A stretch of 63,994 nucleotides of DNA, counting the filler, from Streblomastix strix (taxonomy: Eukaryota): the NCBI GenBank assembly GCA_008636045.1. It is 3 parts of 3 records of this genome, joined end to end, with 100 filler letters (N's around TTAATTAATTAA, not from the genome) between each part and the next. Parts side by side here need not be neighbours in the genome. Positions count along the whole stretch, not along the records: positions 1 to 21,714 come from SNRW01000357.1; 2 more parts are not named here. The stretch is one strand, 5' to 3'. Shown here in pieces: positions 84-35,714 of this stretch (the stretch's first letter is position 1; each line of letters begins with the position of its first letter). The notes under the pieces are model-generated. The model was not told the DNA's origin, ran no database searches, and was given only the letters and a program-made list of their open reading frames with translations. Both the position numbers and the translations under genes were made by a program.

Positions 84-1212
84 ATATATAATGACAATAT
101 AATCTTTGCGTTAATTTATTTACAGCCTGTATGCTTATTATTTAATAAATAATATTTTAATAAATAATAAATGAAATTATTCATTTATAAACAATATTTT
201 ATTATAATTATTATTATTTTTTATATTTAATTAATTTAAATTATTTAATAATTCAGATTGTATGACTAAATTACAAAAATTAAAAAATTTATTTATAAAT
301 ATATTTTTTGAAATAATTTTAACTTAAATTTTAATAATTATCTTAATTATTTTAAATTTTACCTTATTTATAATTATTAATATATAATGAAAATGCAATC
401 TTTGTAATTATTAAATAAAAGGCCGTATGTTTATAATTTAATAAATCTACGTATTAATTTCAAATTATTACTTATTCCATATATTATTTTTATTAATATT
501 TCATATTTTATATAATGATATATTTTTTATTTAAATAAAAGTCTGTATGATCAAAATTTAATAACATAAAAAGTTTTTATTTATATTATTTATTATTATT
601 ATTAATTTCTAATTAATTTTTAACCTTTATTAATTATTATTTGCATTATAAATTGACTGGTCTATATTATATTAATTTTAAGATGGTTTAACTGGAATTT
701 AAAAATATACAATAATATAAATATTATTATTTTTAAATTTGATTTTTTTATTATATTTAATTTTGATTTATTTTATAATTGTTCATATTTGTTGATTATA
801 TGATTATTATATTTATCAATATTTCAGAAAGTATACTCTTAATTTTAAATAAATTATTATAGAAATATTAATTTATAAATATTATTATTTAATTATTTTT
901 TTATGATAATTGTATTATTTTTATTATAATTTTTATTTGTATGATCTAAATTGTTTATGAATTAATTAAGATTGTATGTTTAAAATATAAAAATATAATA
1001 TAATATAGCTATATTTATTAACAATTTGAATTATCGTTTATAATTTTAATTTATTAATTTTATTTTATTAATTGAATATACTAAATATGTATTTTTTGAA
1101 AAACAGCATGTATGTTCAAAATTTAGTAAAATTATAATATTTATTTCATTTTTCTAATATTTAAATTATTATTTCACAAATTTTTAATTTAATAAAACAA
1201 CAGAAAGTATGT
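84..1212 (+). repeat. Degenerate tandem array of ~95-165-nt intron+microexon units, each ending (C/A)AG-NNN-GT(ATG)
   Basis: AG|NNN|GT at 126-128, 257-259, 422-424, 542-544, 683-685, 828-830, 971-973, 1107-1109 and 1204-1206. Seven of nine donors are GTATG. Flanks such as tatataatga...aatctttg and ..tttaataa recur between units. Confidence 0.7.
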
Positions 1213-1776
1213 TTAAAATATAAAAAAAATTATAATTATATTTTATTTTAAACATTAATTTTTAAATTAATATTACTTTTTATATTTTATAATTAGGTGG
1301 TGATCATTCTATTAATTATAAAACAAGGTATTAATTAAAAATATTAAAATTTTAAAATATTTTATTTATTTTTTTATGATATTTTTTTAGTGGCAGCCTT
1401 TCTCACATCATTAAAGTTCAAAATAGAACCCAAATTTCTTCACCAATCAATGGAAACATGCCATTCACTTGCGGATAAAAAGTGTCGATTGAATTGGATA
1501 TGACATCAACTCCTCGCCGTGCCACCTTTTTCGTTGATGGAAAAGTATAATAGAACACAGTGACTGATCTACCTAAAGCTATTCGCTTTTTTGTTTGCAA
1601 TAATTTCTATATTAATTAAATATTTAATTTTTTTATTTATGTTAATCATTTAGGCATTTATTCAAAAAGCTGGCTCTTCATTCCAAATCACAAAGTTTGA
1701 AAGAGTTGCTCATTCACCTGCCCGTAGATATTCTGGATCAAAAGAGTGGAAATGGGGATAAAACTGGAAACAATGA
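126..1776 (+). CDS. SPRY/B30.2-like (ConA-fold) family protein, 5'-incomplete; exons 1297-1327, 1391-1592 and 1654-1776 plus nine candidate 3-nt microexons upstream
   Basis: Spliced translation (TAR=Gln): GDHSINYKTSGSLSHI...NGNMPFTCGQKVSIELDMTSTPRRATFFVDGKVQQNTVTDLPKAIRFF|AFIQKAGSSFQITKFERV...KEWKWGQNWKQ*. GT-AG introns at 1328-1390 and 1593-1653. Clear paralog of 12732-13805 with a shared 31-nt exon. The fold assignment is by resemblance only. Confidence 0.75.
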
Positions 1777-2588
1777 AAGAATAGGTGAAATATTATCAAT
1801 ACCGATAAAAATTATACAAACACAAAAGTAACTTATCAAACAATAAAGAGTGTCTCATTTAATGTTTTATATAATTTATTTTTTGAACAATTAAAACAAT
1901 TTGAAATAAATATTGAAGCAAAAACTATTCATAAAGGACCATTGCAATAGACTTGGACAGTATTATTTCATAAAGAAGCATGCAAACACCACTCAATTAT
2001 AATGGATAGACAGCATAAAGTCCACATTCAAATCCAAATCAACAACATGGATAAGGATACATACAGATATAATCACACTAGATGGTGCCTGAAGAAAGTG
2101 TGCAGGATTCAATACGCTCACCTCCAGCTGATCAGCCCGATTGATTTGATTTTGAATCAGTATCAAATATTTTTATTTTAAGGACATTTATATCCATATT
2201 TGATTAATTTGAACTTATATTTGATTATAATTCAATAAAATATTTTATTATTAAAATTTACAACAATTTAAATATCAAAGCCATGATCAGAAGATAAGTT
2301 GACATTTTTTCATAATTTTGCTTATAATTCATTCCACAGGAGTTTTGAAGTAGTATATACCAAAATCCAATTGAAAATATTTATACTTTATATTTTTTAA
2401 TGCTTTATTCGCAAAAATATATGCCAATTATTATTTTTTTAAATAAATTGAAAAACATAGATTTGTGCACTAAATAACAGATTATATTTCAATTAATCGT
2501 ATTTAAAATATTAATTTTATTTCATTGGAGCATATTGATTATAATTATAATTATTATTATTAATATTATTTTCTGATACGTATAGAAA

Positions 2589-5000
2589 ATGCAGAAATAA
2601 GAAAATAATATTTTGGACGTGAAAATCTAGGCATAGTACATCATAAAAGATATTCCAGATTAAAAAAGTGCAGGTCAATAAGATTCTGAAGGAAAAACAT
2701 AACATGCAAAGCGTATTACAGCGAAGGGTGAGCGTATGAAGAGCAACCGAGAACAAAAACAGCAAAAGCTCTGCAAATAAATTTCGATAGGCGACGAATG
2801 TACTAATCCTCGTTGTATTTTCTCTCATGATATTAATTCTTTTTTGAAGAACAAATTGCCAAATAGCCAACCTGAAACAGAATGCGTTTTCACTAAATTG
2901 AATCGACGGTGTCCATACGGCGTAAAATGCTTGAATTCACACAGCCATATTAAAATCATATCTCAGCAACATTCTAAAGAAAATGATGAAGCAGTTATTT
3001 AAATTGAGTTCACTGACAAACATCTTCCTTTTCCAGAACCAGAACTCAATATATTTGCACATGAAACTGTAAATAGTTTAAATAGAAATTAAGAATAATT
3101 TCCACTTTCTTCTAAACTTGTTATTCCTCTAATAAGCACATTTACAAATTAACTTCGAAATTAATAATAGACAAAATCAGAAAATATTTTAAATGAAAGA
3201 AAATAATAAGATAAACACGACAATTTATAATCTAAAGGTAAAGATATGATTATAGATGATAAATTAAATAGTAATTTAGATGCAGAGGAAGAATAGGATA
3301 AATATGAAGGAGATGAAATGGACACTTAATTCTAAAAGACAAAAAGATAAAGAGAATAAGAGTAAGATGATAAAAAAGAAGAAATCTAAGACATTGAATA
3401 AGAAAAATTGGAAAGAGATAAACGAGTAAGATTAAGAATATCAGAAGAAACTGAAGAATAATCAATAAAATAAGATTCATCATAACTCATAAGTACAAAT
3501 TAATTAATAACATCCTCGTCTTCATTATCACCATAATAATATTCATCATTAATTCAACCATTCCCAATTCATCAACAACATCAATTGAACTTTGATGGTC
3601 TTCTTTATCTTGCGCCATTAACAACTCTTGGAAATCTTCCTTTTAGACGAGTGTGTGTTGAATAAGGAGTTGATATGACCTGTAGTGAAATGGTCGTATG
3701 TCAGACATTACTGAGAGGATAAGGATCTGAACTGGCTCTTCTTAGGAAACACAGGAGTGAGAAGATATTTGGAATTCAGTTGGCTTCATCACGCGCAGAT
3801 CAGACATCGATGGCTGTTGAGGTTATTGAAAGGGAATTTGGAGACAATATTGACTTCTTTGATTTTAATTGTGGATGCCCTATTGATACTTTCTGTAAGA
3901 AGGGGATGTGTGCTGAACTTCTGCGCAGACCTACAAAGGCTATTTCAATAATAAGAGCTCTTACAATGTCTTCTTCACTTGCTCAGGCAATCAGAAAGAT
4001 AGAAAAATAAAGATCATTACAACCATATATTGGTGAATTACATCCACAAACTGCATAGAATTTAGCTGATTAGATAGCTGATTCTAAAACAATAGAAAAT
4101 GCCATTCAAATAATAGAATAAACTTAGAGATCTTTAAATGGAGATTAATTTCAACCATTAACTACAAAACCTATTATAGTCAAAATACGAATGGGTTATG
4201 ATGATAAACATCCAATAGCTCATTCTCTAATCCCATAATTATCAATGTTATCTGGTGCATCAGCTGTAGTATTACATGGGAGATCTAAATTATAGAGATA
4301 TCAGAAGTGTGCAGATTGGTAATATATTCGATAGTGTTCAAGATAATCTCCAATCCCAGTGTTTGGTAATGGAGATATATTCAATTGGAGAGATGTAGTC
4401 AAGATTTGGGAAGATGAAAGTATCAGGAATGAAGAATAGAAGGAAGAAATAATAGAGAAAGAGAAAGAGAAAGAAGAAGATGATATGAATTATTAATAGA
4501 GAGAATAATTTGGATCTTCTGATTCTCACTCATAAAGAATTAAGCCTTCAGTGATGATTGCAAGAGGAGCTCTTATTAAACCGTGGATATTCACTGAAAT
4601 CAAAGAATAGAGAGATATTGATATAAGATCTGGAGAGAGATTACAAATTCTGCGCAATTTCGCAGATTATGGAATGGAACATTGGGGATCTGATGGATAA
4701 GGAGTTGAGAATACCAGAATATTTATGCTTGAATGGCTTTCTTTCTTCTATAGATATATTCCCATTGGTATAATTGAAGGATGTGGTGTGGATCCAATGG
4801 AAGCGTCATCAGTAGAAGCTCTGTCACATACAAGATAGAAACTGAATATGAGATTTCCTCGATACAATGGAAGAGATGATTTAGAGACACTCTTTGCAAG
4901 TTCAAAGGCATCAGATTGGGTTAAAATAACGGAGATGTTCTTAGGACAAGCAAAAGAGGGGTATTAATTTATTCCAAAGCACAAGTCCAATGCATATTGA
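2589..5000 (+). CDS. DUS3: tRNA-dihydrouridine(47) synthase, 803 aa, intronless
   Basis: Two N-terminal CCCH-type zinc fingers. DUS motifs [62 protein letters not shown] and C-terminal [10 protein letters not shown]. Frame is continuous from ATG 2589 to TGA 4998-5000 with TAR=Gln. Confidence 0.93.
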
Positions 5001-12731: not shown

Positions 12732-13805
12732 TCAATTCCATTCTTTACCCCATTCCCATGCTTTAGATTTAATATGTTTAGCTGATGGTGCAGAAACTTG
12801 TTCGAATTTGAGTATTTTGAAAGATGAACCAATCCCGTAAAAGAAACACTAATAGCAAATAAAAAATGATTAATAAAAAATAGACGTGAAAGAAATACCC
12901 AGAATCTTACAGCATCGGGTATATTTACGACATAATTGGATTGCTCAACATCATCAATAAAAAAAGTGAGCGATCGATTTGTATTCATGTTCAACTAAGT
13001 ATAATAAAATTGATGATAAAAAATACAAAATTCTATTTATTTATTACAAACCTCCAAAGTAATGCGATGTCCTGGGTCATCAAAGTCAGAATTTCCTTCA
13101 ATTTCATCACCAATATGATGAATATTCCCACTAAAAAAAATATTAAATAAAAAAAATTCAAATAAAGAATTATTTTTTTATCCAGATTTATTATTAATAT
13201 GTAAAATCAAAAATATTTAATAATATAAATATAATTAGCACACTTCCAATAATAGTAAACGATTTTGTTCCACCCTAGAAATGATATTTGTTGCAAAAAT
13301 ATATTAAAAGAGAATTTCATAATATTAAATAATTATTATTCTATAAGGTAATAAATACCAACACTTGAAGGTCTTTCATCTTGACCATAGTGCACAGAAT
13401 CATCAGCAATACCAACACCTATTCAAAAAGGAAATTAATTAAACAAACAATAAAGAAATTATAAGTGAAATCTAATAATAGAATTAAACTTATTATTTAA
13501 TGTTAAATATAATAAATCATGCTAAACCTTATAGATCTTTCACATTGAGAACTTCCATTCTAATAATTCCTCTTCTGATAACAGGATCGAATAGAATTGT
13601 AACTTGGTTATCATTTTCTTTGGAATGGATAAATGTATTTTCATTGGTTTCAACATCATCTGTATGCGGAATTTGTGGAGTATATGAGACTGTAAAATGA
13701 TAAAAACAATTAATAAAATTGAATTAAAAAATTTCATTTAATTCAAAATCTTATTTTCAATGTATTCGTTTTCATGCCTTTTTGTTCTTCCTATGAAATT
13801 GACAT
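12732..13805 (-). CDS. SPRY/B30.2-like family protein (paralog of 126-1776), seven exons
   Basis: TILFDPVIRRGIIRMEVLNVKDLQ|GVGIADDSVHYGQDERPSSVG|WNKIVYYYWN|GNIHHIGDEIEGNSDFDDPGHRITLE|LNMNTNRSLTFFIDDVEQSNYVVNIPDAVRFW|CFFYGIGSSFKILKFEQV...AWEWGKEWN*. The first intron appears to have a GC donor, so the start is tentative. Confidence 0.78.
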
Positions 13806-21714: not shown

Positions 21715-21814
21715 NNNNNNNNNNNNNNNNNNNNNNNNNNNNNNNNNNNNNNNNNNNNTTAATTAATTAANNNNNNNNNNNNNNNNNNNNNNNNNNNNNN
21801 NNNNNNNNNNNNNN
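21715..21814. other. Artificial contig-joining linker N44-TTAATTAATTAA-N44
   Basis: Exactly 100 nt with a six-frame TAA spacer, identical to the linker at 43523-43622. Confidence 0.97.
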
Positions 21815-23306: not shown

Positions 23307-26300
23307 ATGTAATTTGAAACTTTAAATGAAGATGTTCAAAAATAAAATCGTCATGAATAATTTCAAAAATATCTTGATGAGAAATATAAAAAGATAAGGG
23401 AATAGCATAAGAACAACGAAGAACTATAACTACAAGCATTTAGACTCTTAGATGAGGAAATGAGAGAATAAATTGAATTGAATGATGGCAGTGGTTTGGA
23501 ATAAGTGGATCCAATAGTAAATGTGGAAGCATTATTATTATGTAAACCTATAGATAAAGATAAATTTATAATAGCATTAATTCAAGCTCATGCTGAATAT
23601 TAAGATCCAATTAGAATTGAATAAAGTAGAATTGAAGATGAACCGACGATTTTCTATTATAATAATAGAATTACTTCATTAGAAGATATATAAAATCATT
23701 TAAATTTCGTAATCCATAAGCAAAAAACTAATCATTTTAAGAATGCTTTCGATTTTGGTTATATAGTTGAAGATGCTATTACTAATAATAACGGTTCTAA
23801 TAAAACAGCAGAATATACTATCAATTATCCAAGATAGAATTTAAATACTACATCTGCAAAAAATATTAAGAAAATAATTTTTTCATTTGTTGATAAGGAT
23901 GAATTTAAAGAGTATGTTCCAACAATTATAGTAAATGATTAAGAAAGGACATAAGAATCAACTCTTCATAAGTTTATTGCAATATTTTCTATGGTTGTAG
24001 TTGTTTGTCGATATCCTCTAACCAATAAAGCAATTCAGGAATTATAAAAATATATTAAACGTCGTTAAGTTCATCTTAATGATTCGCAACATCCTAATAA
24101 TTGTGTATTTGAAGCATTATCATTCTTATCTTTGCCAGACAAAACAAAAGAAAAACGACATTAAGATCATGATAGAGTTGTTGAAGGAGTTTAATTGATG
24201 ATTTACTATTATAGTGTATAAGGAAGCTCTACAAAATGCAAAAATATACAGAAATGTATCAAGGAATATTAAGGATTTGATTTTGTAACAGATGGCAAGA
24301 TACTAGCTAAAATATTTAATATAAACATTTGCATTTATACATGCAAAGAGATCCCAATTTAGTCAGATGATGGTTAGACATCAGTTTTGTATGACTAATT
24401 CTACTTAGATTAGATTATCATATCAGATGAAAATGAAGAAGAGGATGATGAAAAAGAGGAATAAAATGACGAAAATAGACCTTAGTTATAAGATTTTAAT
24501 ATATTATTGTTTAAGTTGAAAAATAATTCACATGTTTTATTTGAATCTGATCCTGAGACATTAACAGGTTATCGTAATTGTCCATTTTGCAAACAACACA
24601 GTGTTTCAGTTAAAAATAAGAATAGACATGCATTAAGAGATTTTGAAAGACATGTTGCAAAATGTTAATAAAATAAAGGTAAATAAGTAATATTATTAAA
24701 ATCTCTTTCACCATTTGCTCCTTATATATTTGAAAATAAAAACTTATTAGTATCTTATTGCAAATGAAAAACTAAACGAATTTAAACCTACAAGATATTT
24801 TATAACGTATGATTTTGAAACTATTCCAAGAATAATAAATTAAGGATATGGTAGTAAATCAGTTGTAAATGGTATTGAGGTTCACAACTCTTAATAACAT
24901 ACTGTGCTCGAACTATTATCAGTTGCATCAACAATTAAATCAAAATCTGGAATTAAGAAAATATATTAAACGTCGTTAAGTTCATCTTAATGATTCGCAA
25001 CATCCTAATAATTGTGTATTTGAAGCATTATCATTCTTATCTTTGCCAGACAAAACAAAAGAAAAACGACATTAAGATCATGATAGAGTTGTTGAAGGAG
25101 TTTAATTGATGATTTACTATTATAGTGTATAAGGAAGCTCTACAAAATGCAAAAATATACAGAAATGTATCAAGGAATATTAAGGATTTGATTTTGTAAC
25201 AGATGGCAAGATACTAGCTAAAATATTTAATATAAACATTTGCATTTATACATGCAAAGAGATCCCAATTTAGTCAGATGATGGTTAGACATCAGTTTTG
25301 TATGACTAATTCTACTTAGATTAGATTATCATATCAGATGAAAATGAAGAAGAGGATGATGAAAAAGAGGAATAAAATGACGAAAATAGACCTTAGTTAT
25401 AAGATTTTAATATATTATTGTTTAAGTTGAAAAATAATTCACATGTTTTATTTGAATCTGATCCTGAGACATTAACAGGTTATCGTAATTGTCCATTTTG
25501 CAAACAACACAGTGTTTCAGTTAAAAATAAGAATAGACATGCATTAAGAGATTTTGAAAGACATGTTGCAAAATGTTAATAAAATAAAGGTAAATAAGTA
25601 ATATTATTAAAATCTCTTTCACCATTTGCTCCTTATATATTTGAAAATAAAAACTTATTAGTATCTTATTGCAAATGAAAAACTAAACGAATTTAAACCT
25701 ACAAGATATTTTATAACGTATGATTTTGAAACTATTCCAAGAATAATAAATTAAGGATATGGTAGTAAATCAGTTGTAAATGGTATTGAGGTTCACAACT
25801 CTTAATAACATACTGTGCTCGAACTATTATCAGTTGCATCAACAATTAAATCAAAATCTGGAATTAAGAAAATATATTTCGATTTACGCAAAGAGAATTT
25901 CATTGAAAAATGCCTTGAACAAATGTTCGAAGAAGCTAAATAATTGAAAGAAGATAATCAATACAATGATCCTGAAATACCTTATGATATTTAAATTACA
26001 GTTCTTGTATATAACTCAGCACATTTCGATATGGTATTTGTATTCAGGTATTTAACTAATCCATTATGGCATATTACAAGTTATTTAGGAGATTTCTCAC
26101 ATATTAAGCGAGTAGAAATTAAACATAAAATTTCTGGAGTAACATTATAATTTTTAGATGCTATGCTATTTGTAATAAAAGGAACATTAAAATAATTTGC
26201 TGCAGATATTGGCAATGGCGGAAAAGATGATTAAATAGGAGTATTTCCTTATGATGCCATTAATACAGATAATTATAATGAGGTCTTATCGAAATCTGAA

Positions 26301-31589: not shown

Positions 31590-32549
31590 GGAAGATATTC
31601 ATTAGATCCTTTTTTGTAGATATCTTCATATACTCTTCGACTTCTAACACCTGAAATTATTTAATTACTAGAAGCAGAAGGACCTTGGCCTTACGTTGAT
31701 GACGATGATGAACTTGATTGATTCATATTTGTTATGCTTTAGTTGAAAGATAAAACTTAAATTATGATAATGAAATGAAGATGGATGATCGAAATCCATT
31801 TTAAGAATGAAACAAATACTCTTTAGAGCATGAATGCAGTGAGTATGGAAGATAATGAATAAAAATAAGCAACGCAAAGCTCTGCTAATGAATCCAGAAG
31901 GGATCAGTTTTTGACTTATTCATCATGGATAAATACAAAATAATCGAATTAAAGTTAAGTTTTAAAGAGTACATCTCCATCTCTTTAGCCTTTAGACCGC
32001 TAACATAGTTAGTAGAGTGAGAATGTAATGAGTTCAATGATTTCTCCAAGAGCTATTGTAAAAGTCGGTTCTTTATTTGAAAAGGAAACTCAACCAGTTA
32101 CTTAAGGTTTAACTCGACTACGATCATCAATATTTGAAGAAACAATCATGCCAAATCCTTCTATTTGCAGATGGTTATTAGATATAATTAGTGAAGATGA
32201 ACATATGACAAAAGAATATGCACATTTCATTTTATCAGGACCTTAATTAATAAGAGTTGTTGCATACATATATGAAAGTCCTGAAAGTTAAGTTGAAATA
32301 ATTGTTGAAGATGAAACTTGCTGCAGTAAATTTTGTCATGATTGTAAAGAAACAATAACTGATATTGCAATTTCAAACGTGAATATCTTAACATTAGATA
32401 TGGATAAAGTAAATTTATTGAGAAATTCTAATAAAATATGTCTGCAAAAAGTTAGAAAAATATCTAGTATACTTGATTTAGGAGAAATATCATCTAGAAT
32501 AATGAGAGCTATATCATATAGATTAATGTAAGTTCTTTCTAAAGTATGA
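31590..32549 (+). pseudogene. Uncharacterised Polinton protein
   Basis: Long frame LDPFLQISSYTLRLLTPEIIQLLEAEGPWPYVDDDDELD*F...EDETCCSKFCHDCKE...VLSKV* with TGA at 31719 and 31776. Confidence 0.55.
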
Positions 32550-32596
32550 GCATAACATATGTTAATTAATTTATTTTTGTTAGAAATCAACTTAAA

Positions 32597-35500
32597 ATGG
32601 ACGGAGATTTGCATATGCTTGATGTAGTCTTGAAACATGATGAGGTATTGTTCGGCTCTTCTCGTTATAACGTTGTAGGTTTAGTGGATTAAGTTATAAA
32701 CATTAATAATTAAACCAATAATATTAATAACGATCCAGTACAAGATGTATATACAAGACCAGAGGTAAATGAATAATTAAATAAAAAAGCTGAAAAAACT
32801 GATCTTGATGATTATTATGACAAAAGTGAGACATTTGCCAAAGAAGAAGTCTATACAATTACTGAAGCAGATTAGTTGCTCAGTGAAAAAGCTGACAAAA
32901 CTGAATTAATTGATTCTTATAGCAAAAGCGAGACTTTTGCCAGAGGCGAAGTCTGTAGCAAAAATGAAACAGATGAATTGCTTGACGAAAAACTTAATGA
33001 AGCCGTACTTGATGACTACTATAGTAAAACTGAAACTTATGCAAAGATTGAAACATATAACAAAACAGAGCTTAATTCATTTCTTGATGAAAAGGCAGAT
33101 ATTGGCATATCTTACGCAAAATCTGAAGATGTTGCATTGCTGTTATTGAAAGCTGATGAAACATAATTGATCGATTCTTACGCAAAATAAGAAGATGATA
33201 CAATGTTACTGTTGAAAACAGATAAAACAGACTTAATAGATTCTTACACAATGACTGAGACCGATTAAAAATTAAAGATGAAATCAGACAAAACAGATTC
33301 GATTAATTCATATTCTAAATCAAAAGATGATGTGTTATTATTACTGTTGAAGGCAGACAAAACAGATTTGGATAACTTTGTTGATTTATCATCAGCATAA
33401 ACAATATTAGGATAGAAATAATATGGTATAATTTCTGTGTAAAGTGTATCAAAACTGTGTAAAAATGATGCATAAATCTTATTAGCAGGAGGTGGAGATA
33501 TGTTAGTGAATTCTTTAGTAACACAACCATAGTTATAAGAATTTGGAGATATTGCATAAGGTAAATCAAAAAGTTATGTATTTGCAACGACAGAAGAGAT
33601 GAATACTTGGATGGAAAATTAAGAAAATGTTGCAAAATTATCTATTGGTGATAACTTATATATTGTAGATAAGGAAGTTATGGATTATTGGTGGGATGGC
33701 GCAAATTTTCGAGTATTGGAAGCAGAATTACCTGATATCAGTAATGTTGTTGCTATATTAGGTGCAGCAACTGGAAGTGGTAATGCAATAAATGACGTAT
33801 CAATCGATGGAAATACAATAACACCAGCGAAAAATTCTACGTTTTTTACAACTGGATTTGATCAATCTATTACTGGGATGAAAATATTTACAAGCACTAT
33901 TATTTCTAACGGTATTTAATATTCAAGATATGATATTAACTCTGTATTTCTTGCTGATGGTGGAGTTAGAGCAATATCTGATATAAATGCAAGTGTTGAT
34001 TTGAGTAACTATAATAATAAAACAAAGACATATTCTTAAATTGAAACTGATACCTTGCTAAATAATAAAGCAAATACTGGTGTTTCAAACACTAAAGGTG
34101 AAGATGATGAATTATTACTAGCGAAAGCTGATAAAACATAATTAATAGATTCTTATACTAAAACCAAAACAAATAAACTCTTAAATTATAAGAGAGATAC
34201 TGGAGTTTCAAATACAAAAAGCGAAGATAATGTACTCCTATTACTGAAAGCAGATAAGACATAATTAACAGATTCTTACACAAAAACGGAATCAGATAAC
34301 TTGTTAAATAATAAAGCGAATACTGGAGTTTCCGATACAAAAGGAGAATATGACACATTATTATTTGCAAAAGCTGATAAGACATAATTGATTGATGCAT
34401 ATTCTAAATCTGAAGATGATGCACTACTACTATTGAAAGCAGATAAGATATAATTGATTGATTCTTACACAAAAACTGAGACAAATAATCTCTTAAATAA
34501 TAAGACTGATAATGGATTTTCATATACAAAAGGTGAAGATGATACATTATTATATGCAAAAGCTGATAAAACATAATTGATTGACTCACACACTAAAACA
34601 TAAACTGATAATCTATTAAATGATAAGGCAAATTAGTCAACAACATATACGAAAACAGAAACAGATCAATTGATATCTTAAATTGATACAAGTGATGTTG
34701 ATTTAAGTAGTTACTACACAAAAACAAAAACAGATGAATTATTCTATGAAAAGGCAAATACGACTGATCTGTCTAAATATATGACCTTATGTATTGCATA
34801 AACAATTTATGCAAACAAGACATTCAACAACTCTTGCAGATTTGTAAGTTCTAGTGATGAAATGTCGACTGTAACTGGTTCATCATTTATCAAATCTGGT
34901 GCTGATGATAGCGTTGTATTACTTGAAGCTGGTGGTGCTAAACCAATATCTGAGTTTGGTGGTGCTCCAACTTACTTATCAAATTATTATACAAAAACAT
35001 AGATTTTTTCACAAACTGAAGCAAATAATAAATTTGTAAGACCGGAAGGTTCTATTCAATAAACAATAACAGGAAGAGTAAAATATGTAAGTTCATTTGG
35101 TGAAACTTTTTATGAGACATAGGACCCAGGTGCTAATACTTATTTGACAATGTCTGAAGTGGATGCAAAATTATCATCTAAAATGGATTAGAGTGCATTA
35201 GGTAATTTAGTTAATACAATATAAGATTAGACTATTAATGGATCTAAGACATTTATGAGTAACGTTAGTACCACAGGATTTGCGAAAACAGGTAAAGATG
35301 ATACATCAGTTTTTTTTAGTTGGTAGTGGAGATATGTTATTATCAACATTTGGAGGATTAGAATTAGTAAATATTAATTACAAGAGTAATGTAGTTAGTC
35401 CAACTTCAATTTCGTCACTAAAATGTTATAGATTTGGATCACTAGTCAACTTTTACGGTTATATATATATGGGTAATGGAGCGGGTGCATCTGGTGCATC

Positions 35501-35714
35501 AGTTGCAGTTTGTACACTTGAAAGTGCTGGATTTCCAAAGCATTTATTTTATGCAAATGATATAGTTTTTGCTGGCTCTGCACCACATGTTGCAAATTTC
35601 CGATTTGGAACTGATGAAAAGGTTACGATAACTATTAGAGCACTAACTGGAACAGCGGGTTTAGCTGGTGCTGCATCAACATACGTCAATGTTACCCATC
35701 CTGCAGCAAATTGA
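32597..35714 (+). CDS. Phage-tail-fibre-like virion protein (~1040 aa) with YTKxExDxLLxxKA repeats and a C-terminal beta head; one frameshift near 35315
   Basis: Repeats KADKTQLIDSYTKTETNNLLNNK.NTGVSYTKGEDD.LLL; shaft motifs QSITGMKIF and QTINGSKTF; head CYRFGSLVNFYG..LESAGFP..FRFGTDEKVTI (supplied ORF 35280-35714). Confidence 0.75.
34061..34680 (+). repeat. 123-nt (41-aa) coding tandem repeat in the fibre, with one extra 66-nt sub-unit
   Basis: Unit starts at 34061, 34184, 34307, 34496 (+66) and 34619. Related shorter repeats lie at ~32750-33370. Confidence 0.85.

Follow-up and report, generated by a model that had tools for sequence, protein, structure and literature searches.

Do exons of a single codon each spell part of a protein in Streblomastix strix and, if so, are they always used? 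The question arises at the start of a DNA window of 63,994 nucleotides (filler included; we call this whole stretch the window) from this termite-gut oxymonad (Metamonada), where nine AG-NNN-GT units lead into the exons of a SPRY-like gene. A sequence-only reading had taken them for 3-nt microexons that diversify a variable loop of the protein through combinatorial skipping. This interpretation is supported in part, as regards the anatomy of the microexons, the reading frame, the SPRY fold and the position in a variable loop; judging from the DNA, nine one-codon exons in a row appear to spell out a loop at the surface of a binding domain of the SPRY type.

The ladder of putative exons and its host gene

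All nine triplets that had been placed between 126 and 1206 are found exactly there (Table 1), and the splice signals, AG and GT, are plain in the DNA for every one of them. The spacers, announced as 90–162 nt, measure 128, 162, 117, 138, 142, 140, 133, 94 and 90 nt and contain 6–12% G+C; in the accessible text of PMC1501061 the introns of S. strix span 46–229 nt, so all of these spacers are ordinary in length. Likewise, the count of GTATG donors proved exact, with seven GTATG, one GTTTA and one GTATA, and the donors match the S. strix consensus given in the same text. GTATG is much rarer in the neighbouring gene model, where it opens 1 of 16 annotated introns (Fisher P=0.0005), although those introns are predictions. 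The acceptors include four AAG among nine, against 4 of the 16 predicted neighbouring introns (P=0.39) and none of 21 cDNA-verified S. strix introns (P=0.005), and their pyrimidine share is 0.54 versus 0.66 for the comparison.

The region 1–1296 contains ten AG-N3-GT motifs, the tenth being the TAT at 1208, whereas 2000 dinucleotide shuffles averaged 0.31 and never exceeded 3; 27 of the 65 G residues of the region fall within the 90 motif bases, and elsewhere in the window such chains reach three units at most. Within 1–1400 we found no AG-N(k)-GT with k of 1, 2, 4, 5, 6, 8 or 9 nt, and the four cases with k of 7 merely reflect GTATGT donors. The strict 3-nt spacing rules out zero-nt recursive splicing.

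Table 1. Features of the ladder gene and of its paralog in the window (slashes mark putative splice junctions)
Feature	Position	Strand	Remarks
Putative microexon 1, CCT	126–128	+	CAG/CCT/GTATGC
Putative microexon 2, ATT	257–259	+	CAG/ATT/GTATGA
Putative microexon 3, GCC	422–424	+	AAG/GCC/GTATGT; spacer 5' of it homologous to 1–125
Putative microexon 4, TCT	542–544	+	AAG/TCT/GTATGA
Putative microexon 5, ATG	683–685	+	AAG/ATG/GTTTAA
Putative microexon 6, AAA	828–830	+	CAG/AAA/GTATAC
Likely decayed unit	936–952	+	14-mer on donor side equals microexon 4 at 13/14; no AG 3 bases 5'
Putative microexon 7, ATT	971–973	+	AAG/ATT/GTATGT
Putative microexon 8, CAT	1107–1109	+	CAG/CAT/GTATGT
Putative microexon 9, AAA	1204–1206	+	CAG/AAA/GTATGT
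Alternative unit	1208–1210	+	AAG/TAT/GTTTAA; overlaps putative microexon 9
31-nt exon	1297–1327	+	Phase 1 to phase 2; length and phases as in paralog exon 13274–13244
202-nt exon, SPRY core	1391–1592	+	Public model EZS28_002831 begins inside it, at 1458
Last coding exon	1654–1776	+	Ends with family motif W-G-x-x-W-K, then TGA
Paralogous SPRY gene	12732–13689	-	Exons 13689–13528, 13418–13359, 13274–13244, 13130–13052, 12994–12899, 12848–12732

The flanks said to be shared throughout the ladder are clearly so in one spacer pair only, 1–125 and 260–421 (z 5.3–5.6); other pairs reach z of 4.2 at most, and controls 3.3. In this pair, the first spacer duplicates the 3' portion of the 162-nt one, from which we infer that its donor would lie some 37 nt before the contig start. 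An origin of the ladder by tandem duplication, also proposed, is detectable in this spacer pair and in one decayed unit (936–952), and only there; the decayed unit suggests that units are born and die.

The contig begins at position 1 of the window and comprises 21,714 nt, up to the first run of N at 21715, so that the gene is cut short by its 5' half and perhaps by further units. The nine triplets join in frame to the three intact exons downstream, and under code 6 the joined frame, x-YCLYENSQS-GDH as had been predicted, stays open until the stop codon at 1776; the accessible text of PMC1501061 assigns both TAA and TAG to Gln in S. strix. This visible part of the gene amounts to 27 nt of microexon and 356 nt of ordinary exon. 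Its downstream exon is identical to the annotated protein EZS28_002831, a public model that ignores the ladder region, and word-seeded protein searches matched only this model and that of the paralog, with nothing of near length. Directly 3' of the gene lies an intronless DUS3-like tRNA dihydrouridine synthase (2577–5000, +). Elsewhere in the window, a long ORF rich in KADKT-type repeats (32477–35521, +) has no Pfam match and presumably resembles repeats in the fibre proteins of phages or mobile elements, while identical translated segments 911 nt apart (24274–24360 and 25185–25271; 24823–24843 and 25734–25754) point to a recent duplication.

DNA contigs from four sequencing runs were placed on 1–1335 at 80% likeness; these placements are mostly AT-rich noise and, among the matches listed, none spans the ladder or extends it upstream. 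An assembly artefact is unlikely, because contigs from an independent study (run X2) match 79–151 and 616–738. Over 616–738, the X2 contig shows five other letters and three gaps with respect to the window; its three listed changes (649, 656 and 678) fall outside microexon 5, with none listed at 681–687, and are too few to show selection.

From their sequence context, the nine units most likely represent true exons, of one codon each, in a SPRY-family gene. AG and GT were kept in nine of nine units while the spacers diverged, and this, together with the GTATG donors, argues for selection on the splice sites; since decaying repeats do not retain splice sites alone, selection for splicing is the simplest reading of the ladder, and a very probable one. 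The region might instead be a decayed tandem repeat that lies in a single long intron or in upstream DNA and is skipped in its entirety; or it might be a relic within a gene that has lost its 5' part. The omission of the region from the public gene model would agree with this, as would the part-homology among spacers, which indicates a repeat origin, and simple tandem repeats, for instance those at loci L012, L015 and L027, do yield AG-N3-GT chains. These repeat chains, however, have one to four distinct triplets and the ladder has seven among nine; its splice dinucleotides are intact in spite of the divergence around them, and the downstream exons are not only intact but also require a phase-1 upstream exon. 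We thus consider a non-exonic ladder quite unlikely.

The SPRY family and the position of the ladder

That the gene is SPRY-like, as had been claimed, was confirmed by the model of a relative and by the family profile score. A search of 1.84 billion representative proteins retrieved 121 relatives; seven of the ten that were looked up come from S. strix, and six of these seven are named SPRY or B30.2/SPRY by UniRef. The joined window protein scored 116.8 bits on a family profile built without it and grouped in a clade of 11 rows (support 97/97), in a tree of 29 of 94 rows whose bootstrap is not fully settled. The fold evidence comes from the model of a close relative, P0106 (pLDDT 86.6), standing in for the window protein, and this model matches the SPRY domains of ASH2L, SPSB3 and TRIM9 (E 9e-9 to 2e-7). 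The PDB sequence matches are all SPRY (4/4, E 0.003–0.47) and the Atlas matches agree. The window exon alone found no match in a Pfam search, and among 73 relatives 11 reach PF00622 with E<=0.05, the best at 3e-4. The family has the same fold as the B30.2/SPRY domains of SPSB1/2/3, TRIM9/67, ASH2L and HERC1, but the S. strix gene is not known to carry a SOCS box or a TRIM part. In this gene, some nine residues are also inserted behind the conserved His (1391–1430), in a second surface loop and at a position common to the relatives P0106 and P0069.

With the next strand as anchor, the ladder corresponds in the model to residues 116–125 of the P0106 loop 109–128; these predicted ten residues would make up half of the loop, on what is likely the ligand face. 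The loop aligns with the stretch preceding the W-A-M-Y strand of TRIM9 and the W-G-L-S-Y strand of SPSB3. Apart from the anchors, its positions rank with the most variable of the domain (3.4–4.0 bits), which bears out the description of the loop as variable. From the SPSB3 and TRIM9 alignments, and from the SPSB2 sequence, we take this to be the loop (SPSB loop D) that holds Tyr120 and residues 123–128 of SPSB2. According to the accessible text of PMC2923778, SPSB2 needs these residues for peptide binding, and the ligand specificity of B30.2/SPRY domains is set by loops A–E.

In 84 of 91 family members this loop measures 23–25 residues, and in P0106 it is modelled as ordered (pLDDT 93–96). Most members (68 of 78) have a Pro that precedes the next strand by 9–10 residues, and the nine-exon chain lacks it there. 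In the register with all nine exons, the first residue can only be S, P, T or A, and 23 of the 31 relatives with 25-residue loops have S, P or A at this place, a fit that concerns one position and was noticed after the fact. In its fit to the family, the nine-exon peptide in genomic order does not surpass those obtained by shuffling the exons (P=0.40 against the ten nearest relatives and 0.54 against all 91; P=0.056 against two relatives that were picked afterwards), and the profile cannot separate the 512 possible exon subsets (115.8–117.3 bits).

The paralog in the window has no ladder, but an ordinary 60-nt exon in its place (13418–13359). The equivalence that had been drawn between the two stands for the last 9–10 of the 20 codons of this exon only, which is all that the ladder spans; the counterpart of the remaining codons is off the contig. 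The public model for this region, EZS28_002833 (1523 aa; 14400–5000, -), takes in only SPRY exons one to four of the paralog, omits the last two and continues across a 755-nt intron into an LRR gene farther downstream, a fusion that is likely a mis-annotation.

Codon-sized exons in other systems

Alternatively spliced, codon-sized mini-exons have been described in the nank (NACHT-ankyrin) genes of Tuber melanosporum, where they reportedly serve to diversify the products through alternative splicing (accessible text of PMC4986451, PMC3689799 and PMC13449251). As in these genes, the S. strix ladder consists of consecutive 3-nt units (nine) with canonical splice sites, and it belongs to an expanded family of likely recognition proteins. 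The family is large (121 relatives), but the sole paralog compared at the DNA level does not share the layout. The two systems also differ in that alternative splicing of the mini-exons is reported in the truffle, whereas the S. strix ladder is known from DNA; in number, with tens of units in nank as described there and nine here; in domain, since the S. strix units lie in the SPRY loop of an oxymonad protein, with neither NACHT nor ankyrin in the visible part of a gene whose 5' half is off the contig; and in their junctions, which in S. strix are phase 1 and read under TAA/TAG=Gln. Both arrays would have originated independently.

The schistosome micro-exon genes (MEGs) cited before as precedent do share very small, symmetric exons that can be skipped without a change of frame, although the nank mini-exons, absent from that comparison, are closer. 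In the accessible text of PMC4350168 and bioRxiv 2023.06.21.545858, MEG exons are mostly of 15 nt (6–81) and their introns reach up to 5 kb, as opposed to strictly 3 nt and 90–162 nt in the ladder, and the micro-exons make up most of a secreted protein instead of one loop of a folded domain. The S. strix gene neither has, in its visible part, a coding region made mostly of micro-exons nor encodes a secreted flatworm protein, its N-terminus being beyond the contig. Isolated 3-nt exons in Drosophila hth and in human RPS24 and MAP4K5 indicate, in the sources as far as accessible, that spliceosomes can include exons of this size, but these are single and not a run of nine. We found no report of microexon-coded SPRY loops or oxymonad microexon arrays in the open-access literature, and the word microexon does not occur in the accessible text of PMC6759080 and PMC10703272. 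In our analysis, the S. strix gene is neither a nank nor a MEG gene, but may work like the former; codon-sized mini-exon diversification is already known in kind from Tuber, and what differs is its setting in the SPRY loop of a metamonad.

Scans for the ladder pattern retrieved six loci from prokaryote genomes, 26 from metagenomes (two-unit pattern) and one of viral origin. The SPRY family is absent from all 27 loci of the last two groups, and a single-exon query found no relative of the SPRY gene among 301 pattern matches in metagenome contigs. The six prokaryote loci are chains of two to five units with one or two distinct triplets and, like these controls, 21 of the 26 metagenome loci are short chains or plain repeats, with one to four distinct triplets. 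The remaining five (L005, L008, L010, L013 and L020) have 13–76 units with a period of ca. 28–30 nt, 11–21 distinct triplets and 13–17% G+C. Letter shuffles (5000 trials) reach a stop-free frame with a frequency of 0 for L010, 0.0002 for L008, 0.02 for L013 and 0.065 for L020. The peptides encoded by L013 and L020 are rich in Cys and homologous to each other (score 77 versus a shuffle maximum of 51), and this is the sole one of ten array pairs to score above its shuffles; their 40 aligned codons comprise 15 identical, 3 synonymous and 22 changed. Although from a different organism and protein, this pair shows, at the sequence level, that single-codon arrays can be coding, and it is possibly more striking than the S. 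strix ladder.

The arrays of L013 (2920–4415, +) and L020 (502–1880, +), from an organism that we take to resemble an AT-rich gut ciliate, have about 45 and 43 putative single-codon exons, introns of ca. 26 nt and standard stops. In both, the array follows W-E-L from a phase-2 donor; what appears to be a 1-nt exon, A (L013 2959, L020 537), then completes an Arg, and the peptides continue as C-H-Y-Q-F..G-E..E-P...C-C..G, with synonymous changes; the L013 array terminates a kinase plus B-box gene, and that of L020 is nearly the whole gene. L010 (930–3236), L008 (3041–5240) and L005 (25–418, minus-strand numbering for the three) contain 76, 67 and 13 single-codon units, some with GC or GA donors. 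The L010 array follows a trypsin-like domain, whose match falls slightly short of the Pfam cut-off, and has no stop in phase 0; that of L008 is stop-free in a shifted frame only, though TGA and TAA occur as triplets.

Inclusion, skipping or choice of the units

Taken as exons, the units could be freely combined as far as frame is concerned. All 512 subsets are TGA-free, as had been claimed, and code for 470 distinct peptides; about half of them (258–264 of 512) would stop under the standard code, which upholds the proposed dependence on TAA=Gln. The absence of triplets starting with GA, invoked as a sign of stop avoidance, carries no weight (P=0.51 by chance). Nor does the uniform size of 3 nt imply skipping, as duplication that preserves the frame would produce it just as well with every unit included, and the tightly held length of the loop argues against the usefulness of all subsets.

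We tentatively favour, at a little under an even chance, that all nine units are included by default and that partial skipping varies the loop. Each unit would be recognised through its consensus GTATG donor and the spacers removed intron by intron; skipping a 3-nt, phase-1 exon would preserve the frame but also alter the junction residue, formed by the last base of one exon and two of the next, and TAA=Gln would keep T+AA junctions sense. Over time, the array would gain and lose intron-plus-codon units by duplication and decay. It would work like the nank mini-exon system of Tuber, in a different domain and a different eukaryotic supergroup. Default inclusion with skipping is favoured by the motif excess, the strict spacing, the strong donors and the open frame into intact exons, by the mapping of the ladder to a variable loop of the SPRY fold, and by the agreement of the all-nine register with the first-residue preference for S, P or A; the skipping of codon-sized exons has a precedent in the Tuber literature as far as accessible, and single-codon arrays that read as conserved protein occur in other eukaryotic DNA. 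Conversely, a length-held, ordered loop means that heavily skipped forms may fold poorly, the exon order does no better than its shuffles and the usual Pro is missing, AAG acceptors are unseen in cDNA-verified introns, and no second ladder was found in any SPRY gene searched, while the upstream exons of this one are missing.

Several of these observations would suit equally well a constitutive ladder, with the nine units always included in a single protein and the loop varied only in the DNA, by point mutation and by gain or loss of units. The loop is ordered and tightly held in length, the all-nine register agrees with the S/P/A preference, the donors are strong, and there is a decayed unit at 936–952; besides, the L013 and L020 arrays retain ordered conserved residues, as expected if most units are included. 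But there is no evident reason to keep nine introns for a fixed sequence, the A-rich and partly AAG acceptors could allow skipping, and the published codon-sized system, as described in the accessible Tuber texts, is alternatively spliced. On balance, we regard constitutive inclusion as somewhat unlikely. A choice of one or few triplets per transcript, with most of the loop provided by an ordinary upstream exon, is very unlikely. It would agree with the upstream exon being off the contig and with the alternative register in which the first residue is the conserved Pro, because the all-nine loop is then 4–5 residues too long (14 versus 9–10) and 4–5 units would have to drop. The all-nine register fits the nearest relatives too, however, and the locus offers no structural hint of exclusivity, with spacers all of ordinary intron length.

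Runs of single-codon exons escape gene finders, as illustrated by the public model of the S. strix gene, which omits the ladder, and they challenge how the spliceosome defines exons; in the open-access literature, as far as its text is accessible, we found one such system, the NLR-like genes of truffles. In its broadest form, default inclusion with skipping would mean that an oxymonad independently evolved a codon-wise splicing diversifier, with up to about 470 variants of a SPRY loop per gene, phase-1 junction residues and half of the variants needing TAA=Gln, perhaps for the recognition of bacterial symbionts or viruses, and that single-codon arrays are a recurrent, overlooked eukaryotic device. 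We hold this extension to be doubtful. If true, the SPRY-loop ladder and the arrays of 13–76 units in other eukaryotic DNA would represent a convergent means of constructing surfaces for recognition, or of varying them.
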